From the IMG/VR virus record IMGVR_UViG_3300022856_000003: a DNA stretch of 64,000 nt. The stretch is one strand, 5' to 3'. The stretch is from a virus. The notes under the pieces were generated by a model, which saw nothing but the letters and a program-made list of their open reading frames with translations, searched no databases and was not told the origin of the DNA. Made by a program: the position numbers and the translations under genes. Position 1 is the first letter of the stretch. The number at the start of each line of letters is the position of its first letter. This document shows positions 10,808 through 57,784 of this stretch, in pieces.

Positions 10808-10852
10808 CGGTGCTATAGTTGGTCAAACAGCGCAAGGTGCGCGAGGAAACAT

Positions 10853-11563: not shown

Positions 11564-11591
11564 TTGACTTAACAACTGCTTGCGATACAAT
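11564..11591 (+). promoter_or_regulatory. sigma70-like promoter
   Basis: TTGACT-16 nt-TACAAT, directly after a GAAATCGATTTC palindrome. Confidence 0.6.
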
Positions 11592-30719: not shown

Positions 30720-31178
30720 ATGACGGACTTCCTCACGCTGAACCTCTCTGAACTTGATCTCGACGACATCTTCGGCGCGGAGACGAATCGTCCGCCGAGC
30801 TGGCACAAGTTCCGGCTCATCTTCTCGAAGCTGGCCGCCGATCTGAACCTCCACATGTCGACCGACATTGTCGAGATCGACATGGCTGACGCGGCGCACG
30901 CGCTCGTCGTGGGTCCGAACGCCGGAGCGGGTCAGACCCGGATGTCGAGTTTCGTGCTTGTGGTGGACCCGGATTCGTCGGGTGCGAGCGAGATCCTCAC
31001 CCTCGACGAGACCGCGCTGCCTCCTGGCGTCTACTCGATCAAGAACAGCGGTGGCGAGGGCATCGCGGTGCAGGATTCCGCCGCTTCGGCCATCGCGACC
31101 GTGGCCACGGCCACGACGGCGCTGTTCCATCTGAACGAGGACACGGGCGTGACTCTGGTCGGCACCATGGACGCCTAG
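30720..31178 (+). CDS. hypothetical, possibly virion decoration protein
   Basis: ATG 30720 after GGAG; strongly biased codons; followed by a hairpin. Confidence 0.55.
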   Translation: MTDFLTLNLSELDLDDIFGAETNRPPSWHKFRLIFSKLAADLNLHMSTDIVEIDMADAAHALVVGPNAGAGQTRMSSFVLVVDPDSSGASEILTLDETALPPGVYSIKNSGGEGIAVQDSAASAIATVATATTALFHLNEDTGVTLVGTMDA

Positions 31179-31210
31179 TAGGCGTCTGGACGACTGTCGT
31201 CCGAAGATTC

Positions 31211-31250
31211 GGTGATGCCTCGCCACCACGTCGGTGTGCGGGGCATCACC
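31211..31250 (+). terminator. stem-loop after gene (terminator-like, no U tract)
   Basis: GGTGATGCCTCGC ... GCGGGGCATCACC inverted repeat. Confidence 0.5.
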
Positions 31251-31256
31251 ATGTCT

Positions 31257-31416: not shown

Positions 31417-32088
31417 ATGAGTCTTATTGGTCTGGCCTCAGCCATCATCGAAGGACCCTTCGGGAGAACCCAGGAGATGGTCCTCACTGGCCTCAACGAG
31501 ATGGGCGACATCATCGTCCCTCGTAGTCCATTCCAGTTCTGGCCAGAGTCCATCAGCATCAGCATGTCTGCCGACTACGCAGACAAACCAATCCTCGGAG
31601 GTAGTCACCCCATCAAGCAATGGGTGAGTACTTCCGGTCGTCAGATCAGCTTCTCGCTTCTCGTAGCTCGAGACATCAAGCCGAAGACTGAACTCCCAGA
31701 GATCGCGTTCCTAGTCGCCCCCCAGGCTGACACGAACAAGGAGTTCAATTACGACATCAAGCGGGAGATCGACCGACTACAGGCTTGCCTGCTGCCGACG
31801 TACAAGGACGGAGACGAGCCGATCATCGTCCGTCCTCCTCCGATCGTGTACATCGAAGCTCCAGGACTCGGGTGGGCTCTGAATGCCGAACCAGACATCC
31901 TCGTAGGCGTCATCACCAGTCTGAACATCGTCTACAAGCGCGTCTTCACGGAGAGTGGAACGCCACGACAGGCCACCATCGACGTGTCTGTGTCCGAGGT
32001 GGTTCAGTACCCGGGTGAAGGTGTGAGGTTCTTCGGGCTCGAGGACCTAGCCAGCCGAGACTGGTGGAACGTCTCAGACCCGTCCTGA
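31417..32088 (+). CDS. contractile-injection-system tube initiator-like protein (Afp7/Pvc7 N-terminal-like)
   Basis: FQFWPESISIS...PILGGSHPIKQWVSTSGRQISFSL, PPP.V, GVITSLNIVY..F...GTPR.A.IDVS..E. Confidence 0.7.
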   Translation: MSLIGLASAIIEGPFGRTQEMVLTGLNEMGDIIVPRSPFQFWPESISISMSADYADKPILGGSHPIKQWVSTSGRQISFSLLVARDIKPKTELPEIAFLVAPQADTNKEFNYDIKREIDRLQACLLPTYKDGDEPIIVRPPPIVYIEAPGLGWALNAEPDILVGVITSLNIVYKRVFTESGTPRQATIDVSVSEVVQYPGEGVRFFGLEDLASRDWWNVSDPS

Positions 32089-32117
32089 TTGCGCTTCTGG
32101 TTGTTCAGTGCTAGACT
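32089..32117 (+). promoter_or_regulatory. sigma70-like promoter with a TGTTCA spacer motif
   Basis: TTGCGC-17 nt-TAGACT, extended -10. Confidence 0.6.
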
Positions 32118-32580
32118 GTAGTCAGGAGATGCGCTGAATGTCATCAAAGCTGGAACGACTACGTCGTCTCAAAAAGCCGCAGAAATCTCCACAGGCGTTC
32201 CCGATCGTCCGTAAGAAGTTCCCTGTTCCCGGTACCGACGGGCAGGGACCTCTACAGCCGGAACTTCTGTCTATCCAGCCCCTCTCCAAACCAGCAGCAC
32301 TACTGGAGCTGTCTGAGAGCATCCAGAAGAAACGACGTGCGACCGGCAAGGTCATCGATGTGGATCTCTCTGAGTACGAGGGCAGACCTGATCAGAGATG
32401 TGAGAACTGCCCTAACCAGGCTACTGCGTGGTTCCTGATCTACATGGACGACCAGGACATGGACTTCTTCTTCAACGATCAGCAGTACACAGGACCCCAC
32501 CCGACTGCCTGTTGCACAGGTGCTTGTGCCAAAGAGTTCGGTGCCTGGGACGGAAGCAAGAAGGTTCGCGTCCGTCGCGT

Positions 32581-41372: not shown

Positions 41373-42239
41373 ATGCGACGACTGCTCATCGGCCTTCCTC
41401 TCTTGGCATCCCTGCTCTTCACAGGTTGCGATCTCGCCAGCGGATCGCTCGACGAACCGATTGGGCCTGATGCCTCCTACGTCGAGGATGACCCGAGCGC
41501 GGACAACGATGGTGACGGCTGGGCCGCTCGTTGGGACTGCGACGACGGCAACGAGGACATCAATCCAGACGCCTCCGACACGGTGGGCGATGGTGTCGAC
41601 CGCAACTGCGACGGCGTGGACGGCGTGGACTTCGACCTCGACGGTTGGGCTGGTGAACCCAGTGGCGGCCAGGACTGCAACGACGACGATCCGAACGTCA
41701 ACCCAGACGCCCTCGAGATTCCATATGACCAGATCGACAACAACTGCGACGGCGAAGATGCGAACGGCATCACGACCTGCGACTCGGTACCGACCCCCAC
41801 CGGCAACGACATCGGCGACGTGACCGAGGACTTCCTTCTACGAGACAGTCAGAACAACCCGATCATCCTCAGCGACTACTGCGGTATGGCCGTCGTCCTG
41901 GCCTCCGTCGCTCGATGGGAGCCGAACAGCCACGACCTCGCACCAGTGCTACAGGACTTCTACGAGGAGTACCGCGAACAGGGACTCATGGTCATCACGA
42001 TGGTCGGCGAAGGCGTCATGTTCGGCGGCGACTCTGCGACTCCCGACGACCTGGACTGGTGGACCAGCGAGTACGACATCACCCACCCTGTCGTGGGCGA
42101 CCCAGACTGGGAGATCTCTGACCGTTGGGAAGAGGATTTCTACCTCCCGTCCTTCATCCTCATCGCCCCGGGCATGCGGTTGGTGGCGAGGGACCTTCTG
42201 ACCGTGACCGAGGACGACATCCTCTCGATCCTCCCCTAA
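41373..42239 (+). CDS. lipoprotein with MopE-like metal-binding repeats and a redoxin-fold domain lacking CxxC
   Basis: Lipobox LFTGC; two DCxD..NP.A....DxNCDG repeats; DFLLRD...LSDYCG...WEPNS in place of WCxxC. Confidence 0.75.
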   Translation: MRRLLIGLPLLASLLFTGCDLASGSLDEPIGPDASYVEDDPSADNDGDGWAARWDCDDGNEDINPDASDTVGDGVDRNCDGVDGVDFDLDGWAGEPSGGQDCNDDDPNVNPDALEIPYDQIDNNCDGEDANGITTCDSVPTPTGNDIGDVTEDFLLRDSQNNPIILSDYCGMAVVLASVARWEPNSHDLAPVLQDFYEEYREQGLMVITMVGEGVMFGGDSATPDDLDWWTSEYDITHPVVGDPDWEISDRWEEDFYLPSFILIAPGMRLVARDLLTVTEDDILSILP

Positions 42240-42257
42240 GAAATCTACCCTCCCTGG

Positions 42258-42285
42258 TTGACATCCACAGCCAGGGAGGTAGAGT
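42258..42285 (+). promoter_or_regulatory. sigma70-like promoter embedded in an inverted repeat
   Basis: TTGACA-16 nt-TAGAGT, flanked by CTCCCTGG/CCAGGGAG. Confidence 0.55.
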
Positions 42286-42291
42286 GTTCTC

Positions 42292-42815
42292 ACTTCGAGG
42301 GGGAACACCCCAAAAGGTACCCGCAGCCGCAAGGCGAGACTGACGAAATCGATTTCACTTCGGTGAGAAAGACTAGAAGGAAGGTGCCAGGGAGGGAGCC
42401 CAGAGCGCCCCTTGAAGTAGTTGACCGACCCTCAAAGTCGCAGCCACCAGGAAGCCTTCGCGGGAATCCCAGGTGCTCGGAAGGGGAAGGGACAACAGCC
42501 CGAAGGCGAAAGCCGGAAGGTGCCGACCCTCCACTGGGAGCGCCGCAAGGCGATGTGGAACAGGCAGGACCAGCAAAGCTCTCGAGTTGAGCCATTCCGA
42601 CAACACCCTCGTCACCCGCTTCGGCAGGTCACGGGGGTGAAGTCGTTGTGCTTAACATCACCGACTGCTAGTATGTGCTTGCCAGCCAACAGCGGACAAG
42701 GCTTTGGCCCGTGAGTGCGCGTCCTGGGCGTGGGAGGGGAGACCCGCTTTACCACCGATGGATGCCTGCAAACCGGGGTGGGTAGCGAGTGGCTGACCAT
42801 GGCTGGCCTTGACCC
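42292..42815 (+). ncRNA. putative large structured ncRNA, family unknown
   Basis: About 520 nt without a credible ORF, behind its own promoter; many GNRA/UUCG-capped hairpins (GCC-GCAA-GGC, TCAC-TTCG-GTGA, GGC-GAAA-GCC, CGCC-GCAA-GGCG, GC-TTCG-GC, GGG-GAGA-CCC). Ends are approximate. Confidence 0.6.
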
Positions 42816-42821
42816 TTGATC

Positions 42822-42850
42822 TTGCGTCTTTGATGCCGTTGTGCTATGTT
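42822..42850 (+). promoter_or_regulatory. sigma70-like promoter
   Basis: TTGCGT-17 nt-TATGTT, extended -10. Confidence 0.5.
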
Positions 42851-44264
42851 CAACAGGTCGAGACGACCCATTGATACCTCGCAGGTGCGAGGACCGGGAG
42901 AAGCCATGGACCAAAATACCCTCATCCTGACAGCAACCGACGGCGAAGAGATTCGCCTCATGCCGAACAGCTCTGGCACGGAAGGCACACATGCCATCTG
43001 CGTCAACGGCTGGAACGAGGGGATTGAGCATTTCGACAAGCATGGGGACGGCAATACTGTCATCCCATGCTCACCCGATCGGATTGGAGCAATGTCACCC
43101 GCTGATGCCTACCAGGAGTTCTTCCGTCGCATGGACGAGGAGTCCATCGACATGATCGTCCACGGTATGAATGCGGGCTTCTACGAGATGGCACAGGTGG
43201 AGCTGGACTACGCACATCGACCCTACGTCCTCAAGGTCCTCGGTGAACAGATGGGATGGGTAGAGCCCAACCCTGGCAACCTGACCTACTCGGCGTTTCG
43301 TTCACTGCCGACGATCGTTGGTCCAGTGAGTGCTGCGGACATCAACGGTTGCCTCGACGTGGTGAACGGATGAGAGCCAAGACCGAAATCGCGTACCACG
43401 CTGAGGAGCAGCTCTCCGCAGCACTACAGCTTGTGGCAGCTCTCGTCCTCACCGACGAGGAAGTTGCCGAAACGGCTCCTGATGCACGTCCAGGGAACCT
43501 CGTAGGGTGGGCCGAGTCGACGCGCAAGGAGATGCTCGACGAGCACAACAGACCGAAGATCGTGGCGATGCTCAAGCGTCGCGGGTACTACACGAACACG
43601 CATATCGGGTTCCCGCTGGCCTCGTTGAGTTCGCCAGGCCCTCGCGCACTCGAGGACGGCCTCGAGAAGTGTAGAGCCATCTCTGATGCCATACGAGATG
43701 GATCTATCAACTATGACCTCGACACTGGGCCGAAGAGCATGACTGATCGCCTTGTCCATGACGGGATGCGACAGGCCGATGCTGAATGGATAGTCAGAGC
43801 CCATGGCACAACGATGTTCCTCCTGGCGTCGATGGATAGGGTGATGGGACGAACGAAGTGACCGATCCCGAACCAGAGCGCGAGTACACAAGGAAGGAAG
43901 ACTTCATCTTCGATTTCCTCCTGTGGGCACTGCCAGGCATCCCGTATTTCGACACCGAGAAGAACCCGTTGAAGCGAATCAACGGAGACCAATGTGACTA
44001 CCCTGTCGACGACATTGTCCACCCGGCTGACTGGCCCGTTTGCTACACCCTCCTCTACACGAAGAGAGACGGAGCCGGAGAGTGCTGGACAAGTGCCATG
44101 GGATTCTCTCGATGGCTGTGGTTCGCGAGGCTCTGGCAGAAGATGGCGCTAAGGCACTACACGACCGAGCTTCGCAAGGACCAGAGAAAGTGGAAGCGAC
44201 GCCTTCCTCCTACTGGCTACGGCTACTCCGTGACCATCGTGCCGACGGTGTGGGTGGACTAGAC

Positions 44265-47078
44265 ATGAGCAAGAAGAATCGATTTGGCCCGAAGGGCGAC
44301 TGGAACCGCAAGTTCCACCCTGGGAAGGTCAAGAAGGCTGATCTCGACGACGACCTCGGCATAATCTTCGACATGGCGGCTGAGATCCATGCACAGGACA
44401 AGTCGCTGTTCGGTGAACTGTTCGATCAGATCTCCTCGCAACCCTCCCTTGTGAAGAAGTCGGCCTCTGTGACATTCGTTCCTGCTGCACAGAAGTCGCC
44501 GCAAGAACTGTTGCTGTCAGGTGAGATCAATGACTTCAAGAACTCCATCGCCGCCGCTTTCAGTATTCCGAAGGAGTTCATCTTCGGAGCGGACGAAGAT
44601 CCACCAGTCGTCCTGTGTAAAGGATGCGACCCGACACTGCTACAGGCCGATGTGGAGTGGTGCGAGATCTGCTACGTGGCAGGGATCAACCCCTGCGGTG
44701 AGATCCCAATGGATGGCCCACCCACGGACGAAATCGATTTCGCGACTCTGACCCCAGAGGTCTTCGCAAAGATGACCTCGTCTCAGCGCGGATCCATGGT
44801 CGGGAAGATCATGAAAGCGGTGGGCAAGTACTCACTCAATGGGCTCGATGTTCCGAAGGAACTGCTTGATGCTGTACAGGCTATGGCTCTAGCCGCGACG
44901 ACCCATCTCGACGCCAGCCCTGAGAATGACGAGCTACAGAACAAGATCAAGATCCCCAAATACGACATCAAGTTCGTCAAGGACAAGCCAGGGGCAGGAC
45001 TCATTCCTTGCGGACCGGTGACGCCGACACCCATGCCCTACCCGAAGTCTGGGCTCTGGGGGAATCTGAGCGCTCACGACCTCATCAGTGTCCAGCCGAT
45101 GACGAACCCAGCCGGAGCTAAGTTCCACTTCGACTACAAGTACGCCGAGGACGCCGAGAGCGAGGGCGTGGTCGTCGAGGACGAGGGGCTCCTGCTCGCT
45201 TCTCTCGGGTATAGCGACGGAGACATCAAGAAGATCCTCGCCGACAAGGCTGAGGCGAAGAAGAAGGAGTGGCAAGACTCTCTCCCTGGCCTGTCCGACA
45301 TCAAGCTGACGAAGACAGAGGTCACGGTCCACCCTGACAAGAAGCTCAAAGCCAAATGGGGTGTCGAACCCGTTGAGGACTTCAACAGTCCCGACAGCAT
45401 TCAGTCTGAGGCTGACCTGATAGGTGAATGGCTAGAGGACACAGGCGTGACGCCGACAGTGCTACCCAACCCGACAGATTTCGATGAGGACACTCTCGCC
45501 GCGTTCGCTGAGGCCAAGCTCAACAAACAGAAGGTCGCCCTGCTGGTGAAGGACTGGAGAAAGGTCCACCCTGGTCAGTCATTGCCACCGTTCTGTAAGA
45601 AGCATTCCGACTACGGCGCGATGATGTTCGGTGAGATCCTTGTCCACTGCGACAATGGGAACGGAACCCTGACCCTAGTCACAGGTGTGGTTGTCCCACA
45701 CTCGAGCGAAGGTGTGCAGATCATCGTGGAGAAGTCTCTTGCCTCCTCTGGAGGTGTGGGATTGAGCGACATGGGAGAAGCACTAGCCGACGTGGTCAAT
45801 AGCTCCCTGGATCTGCCACCACTGAAAGCAATCGACTACTTCCTTGCTATAGGCGTCTCAGGCTCGGACGCCCCGACCTACCTCCCACAGGGCTGCTACA
45901 TCGGAGCTGGCACGAAGAACATCGTATGGGGAGTGCCAGGCTCTCAACACGCTGTGACTGTGGCTGCCATCCACGAGAACCACTTCACCCTAGTGACAGG
46001 CGTGAACGTCCCGATCAAGCCGCCAATAGGCCCGAAGCCGATCTTCATGGATGCAGACGGCCAGAAGCCGATCTTCGCGCCCTACATCCCAGTCGAGTCG
46101 ACCCCCACGCTCGAGCTGAAAACAGCCAACGCCAAGTACGCGAAAAAGACTCTCAACCCGGCGCACTACGGTGTGGTCCCTCTCTCGAAGGGAAAGACGC
46201 AGACCGCTGTCGCAGCGAAGATGACCATCAAGGGCGTAAGCCAATCGATGATCTTCTTCGACGCCCAGACCGGGACCGAGTACTACATCGACCCCGTAAC
46301 TGGAGATCTTCACGAGGTGACTCGAGTCGTGACCAACGAAGACACCCTGACCGTGACAGTCATACCCAACAGTAAGAGCACGTTCTTTCCGGTGTCTCCA
46401 CTAGATGTCAAGAACGGAACACTGCCCTTCTCTATCAAGATGGCGATGAAAGCCAAGGCTGTCCTAGAGGCCAAGATCGCGCAGGAGACTGAGGAGATGG
46501 CTGACTTCAAGGAGCTGATGGGTGCTCCCCTCAAGGACAAGACCTCGTCAACGGACCAGTACAGCCCGATTCCCAAGCCCATCGTCTACCGAAAGAAGCT
46601 CCTCGGCGTGACCGTGGAACACATCCAATCGGAGCTGCTACCAGATGGTGAGAGCTTCCAGTACTACAAGGACGTAGTGACCGGAGACCTCCACAAGATC
46701 GTGGAAGCATCGAGCGGATGGGCCACATCCAAGGACGATGCGAAGACGTGGGTAATCGTCGAGGAGAACCCGGAAGCCACAGCTCCACCGACACACCCAC
46801 TGCTGCATAAGCTGAACACGAAGAAGAAAGTCAACGGTGATGTAGCAAGCCTCGAGGCTGAGGAGCACGTAGACGAGAATGGCGACCTCACTGTGAAGTG
46901 GGCTCCCAAAGCCAAGATGGTCACCCACACCGCTTCCTTCAAGAACAATGAGAAGCCTGAGAACCCAGACGACTTCATGTACGCAATGGAACAAGCTCAA
47001 GCTGACCGCATTCAGGCGAAGCTCGACGCAACACCACCATGGGAACAAGCACTCGACCTACTACACGACATGGACTAG
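44265..47078 (+). CDS. large mosaic protein with gp23-capsid-like, portal-like and RNR-like motifs and the C-terminal tag
   Basis: ATG 44265 follows the upstream stop; DLISVQPM, KKLKAKW, APYIP..TPT...YAKK...P..YG, IAAAFSIPKEFI and NPCGEI motifs. Confidence 0.7.
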   Translation: MSKKNRFGPKGDWNRKFHPGKVKKADLDDDLGIIFDMAAEIHAQDKSLFGELFDQISSQPSLVKKSASVTFVPAAQKSPQELLLSGEINDFKNSIAAAFSIPKEFIFGADEDPPVVLCKGCDPTLLQADVEWCEICYVAGINPCGEIPMDGPPTDEIDFATLTPEVFAKMTSSQRGSMVGKIMKAVGKYSLNGLDVPKELLDAVQAMALAATTHLDASPENDELQNKIKIPKYDIKFVKDKPGAGLIPCGPVTPTPMPYPKSGLWGNLSAHDLISVQPMTNPAGAKFHFDYKYAEDAESEGVVVEDEGLLLASLGYSDGDIKKILADKAEAKKKEWQDSLPGLSDIKLTKTEVTVHPDKKLKAKWGVEPVEDFNSPDSIQSEADLIGEWLEDTGVTPTVLPNPTDFDEDTLAAFAEAKLNKQKVALLVKDWRKVHPGQSLPPFCKKHSDYGAMMFGEILVHCDNGNGTLTLVTGVVVPHSSEGVQIIVEKSLASSGGVGLSDMGEALADVVNSSLDLPPLKAIDYFLAIGVSGSDAPTYLPQGCYIGAGTKNIVWGVPGSQHAVTVAAIHENHFTLVTGVNVPIKPPIGPKPIFMDADGQKPIFAPYIPVESTPTLELKTANAKYAKKTLNPAHYGVVPLSKGKTQTAVAAKMTIKGVSQSMIFFDAQTGTEYYIDPVTGDLHEVTRVVTNEDTLTVTVIPNSKSTFFPVSPLDVKNGTLPFSIKMAMKAKAVLEAKIAQETEEMADFKELMGAPLKDKTSSTDQYSPIPKPIVYRKKLLGVTVEHIQSELLPDGESFQYYKDVVTGDLHKIVEASSGWATSKDDAKTWVIVEENPEATAPPTHPLLHKLNTKKKVNGDVASLEAEEHVDENGDLTVKWAPKAKMVTHTASFKNNEKPENPDDFMYAMEQAQADRIQAKLDATPPWEQALDLLHDMD

Positions 47079-47527: not shown

Positions 47528-47556
47528 TTGACGTGCTCTGATTGTTCAGCTAGAAT
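47528..47556 (+). promoter_or_regulatory. strong sigma70-like promoter
   Basis: TTGACG-17 nt-TAGAAT, with TGTTCA in the spacer. Confidence 0.75.
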
Positions 47557-47562
47557 GATTGT

Positions 47563-47694
47563 GAGGCGAGGTGTTCCAGGCAGCAACATGACGGGCGGTT
47601 CGATTCCGCTGACCGAGGGCGAAAGCTCCATACCGGCCCGGTTTGGGTGGTTGATAGAGGTTCCGTAGTGTTGCTGCCTTGAGCGCCTTGCTCC
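47563..47694 (+). ncRNA. ~130-nt structured RNA with a tRNA-like T arm (Y RNA/YrlA-like topology)
   Basis: 5' and 3' ends pair (GGCAGCAACA/TGTTGCTGCC); T arm GGCGG-TTCGATT-CCGCT; GAAA hairpin; starts at the predicted TSS. Confidence 0.65.
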
Positions 47695-47735
47695 TAAATC
47701 CAAATGTTCGACGAGGTGTCGTTCAGGAGTTCTAA

Positions 47736-48122
47736 ATGTCCCGTATCCGAGTAGTTCACATCGTCAGTGCGAAGTTGGAATTGTCCTTGAACCTTGCCGA
47801 GGTCCAGGCCGTCATGGTGGGAGTTGGTGAGGTTCACGTTGCGGTGTTGAACGACACGCTCAAGTTGAAAGGCGTTTCGGTCCCTGACGAAGTCTTCCAG
47901 CCCTTCGTCAGCGCATGGCCCGGCGCGATCACGATCTCCGACGAGAACGGAGCTTGGAGTGGTGCCTTCCGTCGAGACGGACTGGTGTCTGTCGCCTCGA
48001 CACCGGGAAGTCGAGCGATCACGTTCACTTACGACGACGGCAACATGGTCCAATGGCACGTCGATGCTGATGAGTACTTCGCCGAGGTCTTCAAGAACGC
48101 CCAGCGCCAGTTCGCCGCCTGA
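47736..48122 (+). CDS. hypothetical protein
   Basis: AGGAG RBS; 128 aa. Confidence 0.6.
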   Translation: MSRIRVVHIVSAKLELSLNLAEVQAVMVGVGEVHVAVLNDTLKLKGVSVPDEVFQPFVSAWPGAITISDENGAWSGAFRRDGLVSVASTPGSRAITFTYDDGNMVQWHVDADEYFAEVFKNAQRQFAA

Positions 48123-56715: not shown

Positions 56716-57784
56716 TCGTTCCCAAGGCGAGTTCTGGGTCCACCGGAAGTACGCCGAACTCGTCAGCTACATGGTCGACTGCGGCGGATGCGAAGCCGAG
56801 AGCGAGGAGGAATGGCGTCTCCTGGTGTTCGAGCCCGCCTACGGCCAGTTACACGGGGATGCCAACGACGTAGAAGATACCACCGTTGTCCACATCACCC
56901 AGGGAGAGATGGCCGGAGGTGGCTACTCGGTCTCCGAGAGCATGGCTGGTCTAGGCATCCCGTTCCAGCACTACGGGAGCCGCCACTACATGTGGGCTGA
57001 GTACCGTAGTTGCTCTCTCGGCAAGCCAGGAGACTGGGGAAACTACGACTACGAGGGCGGGTACTGCCTGGAGTTCGGCAACGACTCAAAGCCTATCCCT
57101 AAGCATGTGGAGGTCATTGGGGCCTTTCATCACAGATGGCTCAAGATCGGACGCATCAACCTGGGGGCTTACCCCTATGTCCCGAAAGACGGCAGCGTGG
57201 GTGCGTGGTGGTTGAAGTACGTGGTTGAGAGGAAGGTCGAGGAGGCTGAGGCGGCTGAGAACAGTGTCGTCAAGGACATGTCGACTCAGATGGCTCAAGA
57301 GATCGACGCCGACATCATCAAGACGTTGAACGCTGGTTTCCAGAAAACAACGTCCGCGCTCGATGACGCGCAAGAGAAGCTCAAGCAGTTGAAGCTCAAG
57401 AAGGACCTCCTTGCATGGTCGGCGAAGAAGAAGGCCGCGAAGAAGAAGGCTAAGCTCGAGAAGCTCAAGGCGAAGAAGAAGCTCGTTGAGAAGGTCGTTG
57501 AGACGGCCATGGTCCAGAGCATGAAGAAGGACTTCAATATCGACTACTTCTGCGCTTCCTGTGAGGATCTCGGTTGCTTCCAGTGCGCGGAGAGTGAGCC
57601 TGAATCTTCCTGTACCGAATGCGACGGATCGGGTTGCTACGAATGTGAGGATGTCGTCGGGAAGTTCTTGCCGGATGCTGAGAACGGCACGGTCTGTAAG
57701 AAGCATGGCCTCTACGCCTGCTTTTCATGTGTTCCTGGCGCAGTCGAGCCTGATGTTCTGGACATCATCTACAACACGGACTGA
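56708..57784 (+). CDS. mosaic protein with a gp23-like helix, Lys-rich coil, Cys-rich repeats and the C-terminal tag
   Basis: MSTQMAQEIDADIIKTL; CxxCxxxGCxxC twice; ends EPDVLDIIYNTD. Confidence 0.65.
   Translation: MSDRSQGEFWVHRKYAELVSYMVDCGGCEAESEEEWRLLVFEPAYGQLHGDANDVEDTTVVHITQGEMAGGGYSVSESMAGLGIPFQHYGSRHYMWAEYRSCSLGKPGDWGNYDYEGGYCLEFGNDSKPIPKHVEVIGAFHHRWLKIGRINLGAYPYVPKDGSVGAWWLKYVVERKVEEAEAAENSVVKDMSTQMAQEIDADIIKTLNAGFQKTTSALDDAQEKLKQLKLKKDLLAWSAKKKAAKKKAKLEKLKAKKKLVEKVVETAMVQSMKKDFNIDYFCASCEDLGCFQCAESEPESSCTECDGSGCYECEDVVGKFLPDAENGTVCKKHGLYACFSCVPGAVEPDVLDIIYNTD

Follow-up and report, generated by a model that had tools for sequence, protein, structure and literature searches.

A promoter-headed, gene-free stretch in an orphan phage genome and its candidate untranslated RNA

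What does a compact phage genome keep in 666 nt that carry no credible gene? In the 64,000-nt stretch of DNA analysed here (the window), the gap at 42240-42905 is real and, as far as the sequence tells, non-coding, and it probably yields an untranslated RNA. Our preferred reading, held tentatively and with somewhat less than even confidence, is a promoter-launched untranslated leader with an internal hairpin, lying ahead of a cluster of genes for proteins of 155, 163, 134 and 937 aa. The first-pass annotation had seen here a tetraloop-rich RNA, either a divergent relative of GOLLD and ROOL, which are large ornate RNAs (PMC5737381; bioRxiv 10.1101/2024.12.08.627333), or a member of a new class. 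Its observation is partly confirmed and its interpretation partly supported: no available test places the RNA of the gap among large ornate RNAs such as GOLLD and ROOL, and a new structured RNA class is possible but unsupported.

Setting and coding status of the gap

The source phage is uncultured, about 144 kb long, and has been assembled repeatedly from ENA, JGI and Logan metagenomes; it encodes a tail sheath, a baseplate wedge and a class II ribonucleotide reductase. The source samples are metagenomes of Antarctic-lake type, behind JGI 3300005915 and 3300022885 and the assemblies ERZ273153xx-ERZ273165xx. The window has a GC content of 59% and carries nearly all of its genes on the plus strand. 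Upstream of the gap lies a gene for a 288-aa protein with AhpC/TSA and MopE metal-binding motifs according to Pfam (41373-42239, plus strand, with its TAA stop at 42237-42239), which is called in the contigs. Downstream, a 155-aa ORFan gene (42906-43373, plus strand), supported by contig gene calls and by its codon score, is the first of the 155/163/134/937-aa cluster. The small genes around the gap are ORFans, together with one T5orf172/MUG113 endonuclease-like gene. The 937-aa protein (44265-47078) matches T4 gp23 in Pfam below threshold, at 22.8 bits against a cut-off of 24.4, and for this reason we do not call the cluster a head operon.

For a compact genome the gap is a long gene-free stretch, and the earlier statement that it lacks a credible gene holds: none of the nine metagenome contigs has a gene call inside it, and its GC frame plot is flat. 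While GC by codon position runs at about 0.65, 0.40 and 0.82 in the flanking genes, all three positions lie between 0.50 and 0.75 in the gap, without a stable phase, and the third position reaches only 0.5-0.6 there as against about 0.8 in genes. A log-odds model of codon usage, for which 16 long genes served as training set, scores all gap ORFs of at least 50 aa between -0.1 and -0.5 per codon and real genes between +0.2 and +0.5, and the translations of six gap ORFs returned nothing at E<=1 from Pfam and PHROGs. A protein-coding gene or pseudogene was rejected on these grounds, as codon-position GC and codon usage are unlike those of the phage genes and no protein family matches. That the gap encodes one or more short proteins is likewise very improbable. 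The frame in phase with the upstream gene does stay open for 116 codons past the TAA that ends at 42239, and a 34-aa ORF at 42715-42819 has a positive codon score of +0.23. However, a T-poor sequence has few stop codons in any frame, so that long ORFs occur on both strands, and to the third-position GC, the negative scores of the longer ORFs and the lack of any family match or contig gene call are added poor start contexts.

Can relatives inform on the gap? It is 100% identical in all nine contigs, and it matched none of 50,697 phage records with blastn in distant mode; nor did IMG/VR contain a locus carrying relatives of both flanking proteins. In a word-based search of 5.8 billion proteins, the 155-aa and 937-aa queries retrieved only themselves; when the 937-aa protein was taken through a full HMMER search against 1.84 billion representatives, it gave itself and three hits at E 2e-5 to 4e-4, which we regard as marginal sequence matches. 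By these comparisons the phage is an orphan lineage without sequenced relatives. Exact 18- and 19-mer scans from the gap through IMG/VR and GTDB genomes produced 8, 21 and 23 hits; these were discarded as homologues, being seed-only coincidences in which similarity never extends beyond 19-37 nt. Inside the window the gap has no paralogue, a palindrome alone recurring, and its sequence has no antisense target above chance.

The promoter and a possible long leader

An RNA product from the gap is plausible because the non-coding region is headed by its own promoter, as the first-pass annotation had proposed. This sigma70-type promoter (42258-42285, plus strand, TTGACA-16-TAGAGT) matches the consensus at 10 of 12 positions and is the sole sigma70-type hit within 2 kb; transcription would start near 42292. 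It scores 19.2 bits as a member of a plus-strand family of nine sites, located at 11564, 32581, 37195, 41301, 42258, 47528, 50675, 54852 and 60640, with 27798 perhaps a tenth. With a weight matrix made from the nine, these reach 16.8-20.6 bits, as against 14.7 and 12.4 for the next sites and 12.9 for the best minus-strand site, a scoring that is partly circular but nonetheless leaves a large separation from background. Spacers in the family measure 16-17 nt, and in three members the segment of the spacer immediately ahead of the -10 box is conserved.

The promoter is embedded in an inverted repeat with arms of 12-13 nt (42245-42282, plus strand), which begins 6 nt past the upstream stop codon, encloses the -35 box and overlaps the spacer and the -10 box. 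Its hairpin, with -26.7 kcal/mol and a local z near -4, ranks sixth in strength among 46-nt windows. By analogy, the repeat resembles either an operator or a composite terminator/promoter of the PeSL (promoter-early stem-loop) type. A second stem-loop of PeSL-like layout (32083-32128, -21.3 kcal/mol) surrounds a promoter-like site that comes directly behind the stop codon at 32088.

How would such a promoter be connected to the gene cluster beyond the gap? The first genes behind family promoters are typically preceded by a small leader hairpin, with a stem of 4-6 bp and varied sequence and a constant AAGGU, GAGGU or AGGU loop, 8-16 nt before the ribosome-binding site and start codon. Such hairpins are found at 10830, 11600, 27010, 27847, 32633, 37242, 42877, 47709, 50726, 60687 and 63541. 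After most family promoters the hairpin starts 9-25 nt past the -10 box, and it lies within 10-25 nt of that box at 11564, 32581, 37195, 50675 and 60640. The 155-aa gene carries a hairpin of this type (42877-42892, plus strand, 6 bp, AGGU loop), yet the family matrix finds no second promoter of the family between 42286 and 42906. A precedent for a wider spacing is offered by the promoter at 47528, which is followed by a tRNA-like element of about 130 nt (47563-47690), the leader hairpin at 47709 and an ATG at 47736. Since this locus displays the order promoter, insert, leader hairpin and gene, the leader of the 155-aa cluster may by analogy contain the gap as a long non-coding insert. The unit at 47528-47735 is a second promoter-driven non-coding unit of the phage in its own right, with a segment resembling a tRNA T-arm, and is called neither by ARAGORN nor by Rfam; its promoter and the one at 42258 both have a C-rich element just upstream of the -35 box.

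We thus tentatively favour the following scenario. A PeSL-like composite, with its stem-loop around the promoter, would end the upstream AhpC-like gene, and from near 42292 an untranslated, T-poor and purine-rich RNA would start. Most likely, this RNA would be an unusually long 5' leader, of about 615 nt, of the 155/163/134/937-aa gene cluster. Within it, a UUCG-capped hairpin at 42604-42639 could act as an internal attenuator, processing site or stabiliser, and clustered GGAA and AAGG motifs and small hairpins could offer sites to a regulator. That the region is transcribed, that transcripts run on into the 155-aa gene and that they have a regulatory role is all inferred. Several observations speak against this leader. 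The other leaders of the promoter family are shorter than about 180 nt, so that 615 nt is unprecedented here, and the hairpin at 42604-42639 could terminate the transcript fully: it has no U-tract, but such tracts are generally missing from the strong hairpins that follow stop codons in this phage. An example is the strongest hairpin of the window (31207-31252, -33.7 kcal/mol), in the gap past the gene ending at 31178. Furthermore, two weak promoter-like sites beyond the hairpin could drive the cluster alone, one at 42646-42674 and one at 42822-42850 (plus strand, a hexamer pair with a 17-nt spacer). The latter was found by eye, lies outside the family and does not score above 4 bits, and no shared late-promoter-like motif emerged near 42845. 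Finally, the AGGU-loop hairpin is no proof of linkage to the promoter at 42258, because those at 10830, 57860 and 63541 have no family promoter nearby.

Composition, folding and alternative readings

The sequence behind the promoter is of unusual composition, in agreement with the purine-rich character noted before. Its first 320 nt (42286-42605, plus strand) form a T-poor, purine-rich untranslated stretch with 12.5% T, 60% purine and an AT skew of 0.38, each of which falls in the extreme 0.2-0.4% of windows. GC skew is small (102 G against 90 C), so that the asymmetry is one of A over T. GGAA occurs eight times and AAGG nine times, both the window maximum, and GGA 13 times, which puts the stretch in the top 1.3% of windows. 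Only two further stretches, at 2461-2900 and 57120-57420, are as T-poor or purine-rich, and these are highly repetitive, apparently coding low-complexity sequence.

Repeats are present in the gap on a small scale. The duplicated motif of the earlier description was recovered as an exact 10-mer at 42379-42388 and 42515-42524, for which 0.11 copies are expected in the whole window; a 12-mer is likewise exactly repeated at 42326-42337 and 42542-42553 (both repeats on the plus strand), its first copy containing a 3-bp hairpin capped by GCAA. A degenerate 9-nt motif around AAGG, which was chosen post hoc, has five copies within 225 nt and 36 on both strands of the 64 kb. Overall, the k-mer repetitiveness of the gap is only in the top 4-5% of windows, and neither internal duplication nor long-range pairing, sought by aligning its halves in direct and inverted orientation, exceeds shuffles. 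The palindromic site reported at 42345 exists (12 bp, 42345-42356) but is not specific to the gap, being one of 19 copies in the window as against 2.2 expected. These copies share an ATCGAT core, extend from 5296 to 61275 and in many cases lie just past stop codons; a T-to-G variant is found inside genes, four of its copies being read in frame as one and the same peptide, RNRLR.

Does this sequence fold into something special? The first-pass annotation counted at least six tetraloop hairpins, and with 3-bp stems admitted this stands: seven GNRA or UNCG tetramers closed by at least 3 bp lie on the plus strand and one on the minus strand, seven being the window maximum against a mean of 1.5, and 2000 dinucleotide shuffles yield 1.59 +/- 1.25 (P=0.001). 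It does not stand for stems of at least 4 bp, of which there are only two (P=0.12). The stem is 3 bp long in six of the seven, and two derive from the duplicated 12-mer; similarly, three heptad units at 42498-42524 (plus strand) provide three mutually exclusive 3-bp hairpins with NGAA loops. A 6-bp hairpin with a UUCG loop (42353-42368, plus strand) overlaps the 3' half of the palindrome. Even so, the strand-specificity of the tetraloop hairpins and the extreme T-poverty point to constraint on the plus-strand RNA.

The long stem that had been noticed near 42605-42638 is well borne out. It is a 36-nt, UUCG-capped hairpin at 42604-42639 on the plus strand, with 14 of 16 pairs formed, -23 kcal/mol and a local z of about -4 on the plus strand and about -3.6 on the minus strand, and it is a candidate terminator, attenuator or 3' stabiliser. 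In 120-nt sliding-window folding, only this hairpin and that of the promoter are significant. Folded as a whole, the region (576 nt) has an MFE z of -0.01 on the plus and +0.64 on the minus strand, and a putative 354-nt RNA from 42292 to 42645 one of -1.4 to -1.6 against shuffles, with ensemble diversity and positional entropy that match shuffles (z about 0). A multibranch domain is predicted at 42454-42551 on the plus strand, in which an interrupted helix of 15 bp closes over three or four small hairpins, but its energy is not significant (z -1.36). Nothing in these models indicates a defined large fold.

Known RNA families leave the gap unassigned. With cmscan against Rfam 15, the check that the first-pass annotation had proposed, the whole 64-kb window gave no hit at gathering score. 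The gap alone, searched at E<=10 with lax filters, gave three chance hits to miRNA and snoRNA models, the best at E 4.4, and the proposed divergent GOLLD or ROOL member is not borne out. ARAGORN found neither a tRNA nor a tmRNA gene in the window. The first-pass annotation had found no hallmarks of RNase P, tmRNA or group I and II introns. Membership in any of these families, in GOLLD or ROOL, or in the 6S and Csr/Rsm families was set aside as unsupported by Rfam and ARAGORN.

How do other readings of the gap compare with the leader? An unlikely but not negligible one is a stand-alone, trans-acting RNA of about 350 nt, running from about 42292 to about 42645 and ending at the long hairpin, which would serve as a motif-array decoy or sponge for an RNA-binding factor; candidates for this factor are a recogniser of the AGGU loops of the leader hairpins or a CsrA-like protein. 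The order of promoter and 3' hairpin without an ORF, the GGA, GGAA and AAGG counts, the five copies of the post hoc 9-nt motif and the weak promoter-like sites past the hairpin all fit it. However, the motifs show no preference for unpaired positions (predicted unpaired probability 0.46 for GGA and 0.39 for AAGG, against 0.40 overall), the k-mer repetitiveness is not extreme, no CsrB/Rsm family matches in Rfam even at the lax cut-off, the hairpin has no U-tract and the binding protein is hypothetical. Somewhat less probable still is a functionless spacer, an indel or recombination scar or a fully decayed gene in a plastic, ORFan-rich region, in which function would be confined to the promoter cassette and the leader hairpin. 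PeSL-type cassettes are associated with indels in T4-like phages (PMC4122927), the neighbours are ORFans and a small endonuclease-like gene, and the folding is not special. The composition of the stretch, in the 0.3% tail, is on the other hand unlike decayed coding sequence, the hairpin excess is strand-specific, and no frame retains a coding signal or a family match.

A large, ornate, well-folded RNA of a new class, about 350-550 nt long, we consider improbable. The strand-specific excess of tetraloop hairpins, the predicted multibranch domain, the long gene-free stretch in a compact genome and the second promoter-driven structured element of the same phage at 47563-47690 would agree with it. 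Yet neither MFE, ensemble diversity, positional entropy nor long-range pairing sets the RNA apart from shuffles, most tetraloop stems are minimal and several come from short repeats, and neither a family match in Rfam nor a homologue in any database searched was found. Least probable of all is a transcription-primed (R-loop) replication origin comparable to T4 oriF/oriG or ColE1 RNA II: the promoter is strong and the non-template strand behind it is purine-rich and has G runs, but the GC skew is small, the asymmetry being A over T, and there is no AT-rich unwinding element, no iteron and no skew inflection. The most far-reaching proposal is quite doubtful, though a shade less so than an ornate fold as such. 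It holds that 42292-42645 (or the sequence up to about 42860) is the founder of a new phage non-coding RNA class, transcribed from a host-type promoter as a folded multi-hairpin RNA or a motif-array decoy, paired with the tRNA-like unit at 47528-47700 beyond the other end of the gene cluster, and acting on expression of the cluster or on a host RNA-binding factor.

Should the leader or another RNA indeed be made and have a function, a phage lineage without sequenced relatives would gain a long non-coding unit. Together with the tRNA-like unit 5 kb downstream, this would suggest that the phage brackets one gene cluster by promoter-driven RNAs. For the present, the finding is an ordinary candidate, with a credible promoter, a truly gene-free stretch and no defined large fold evident. 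The gap is a reasonable candidate for RNA-seq and not evidence for a GOLLD- or ROOL-like RNA.

Comparison with known systems

GOLLD and ROOL frequently have tRNA genes as neighbours in phage and prophage DNA. The gap shares with them its size range (about 350-600 nt), the phage setting and many GNRA-type loops, but differs in lacking a covariance-model match, adjacent tRNA genes, evidence of a defined fold and a family of homologues. To the CsrB/RsmZ sponges it is similar in its promoter, a length of about 350 nt without an ORF, many GGA motifs, short hairpins and a 3' hairpin. However, the motifs are GGAA and AAGG, not the loop-borne ANGGA of these sponges, predicted loops are not enriched for them, Rfam gives no match, and no CsrA-type partner is known for the phage or its host.

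The late leader of lambdoid phages, the PR'-tR' "6S" transcript under Q control, offers a further parallel. Both arrangements run from a strong sigma70 promoter through a non-coding leader with a hairpin at its end to a gene block, and a symmetric element overlaps the promoter, as Q-binding elements do. In contrast to the lambdoid arrangement, no Q-like gene was identified in the part of the genome seen, where the neighbours are ORFans; the first transcribed bases hold no -10-like pause element, the hairpin has no U-tract, and the downstream block is only putatively late or structural, as its gp23 match stays below the Pfam cut-off.

PeSLs are composite terminator/promoter cassettes of T4-like myoviruses (PMC2839356, PMC4122927). 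They directly precede genes, whereas here a 600-nt non-coding stretch intervenes. Furthermore, while the promoter part recurs nine to ten times in the window, a wrapped stem-loop was seen only at 42245 and 32083. Two of about ten family promoters thus show it, and the stem sequences of the two differ. Nevertheless, at 42245-42285 a near-consensus sigma70 promoter is joined to a stem-loop directly past the stop codon of a gene, in a myovirus-like genome and within an ORFan-rich region, with a second example at 32083-32128, as in the cassettes of the T4-like phages.
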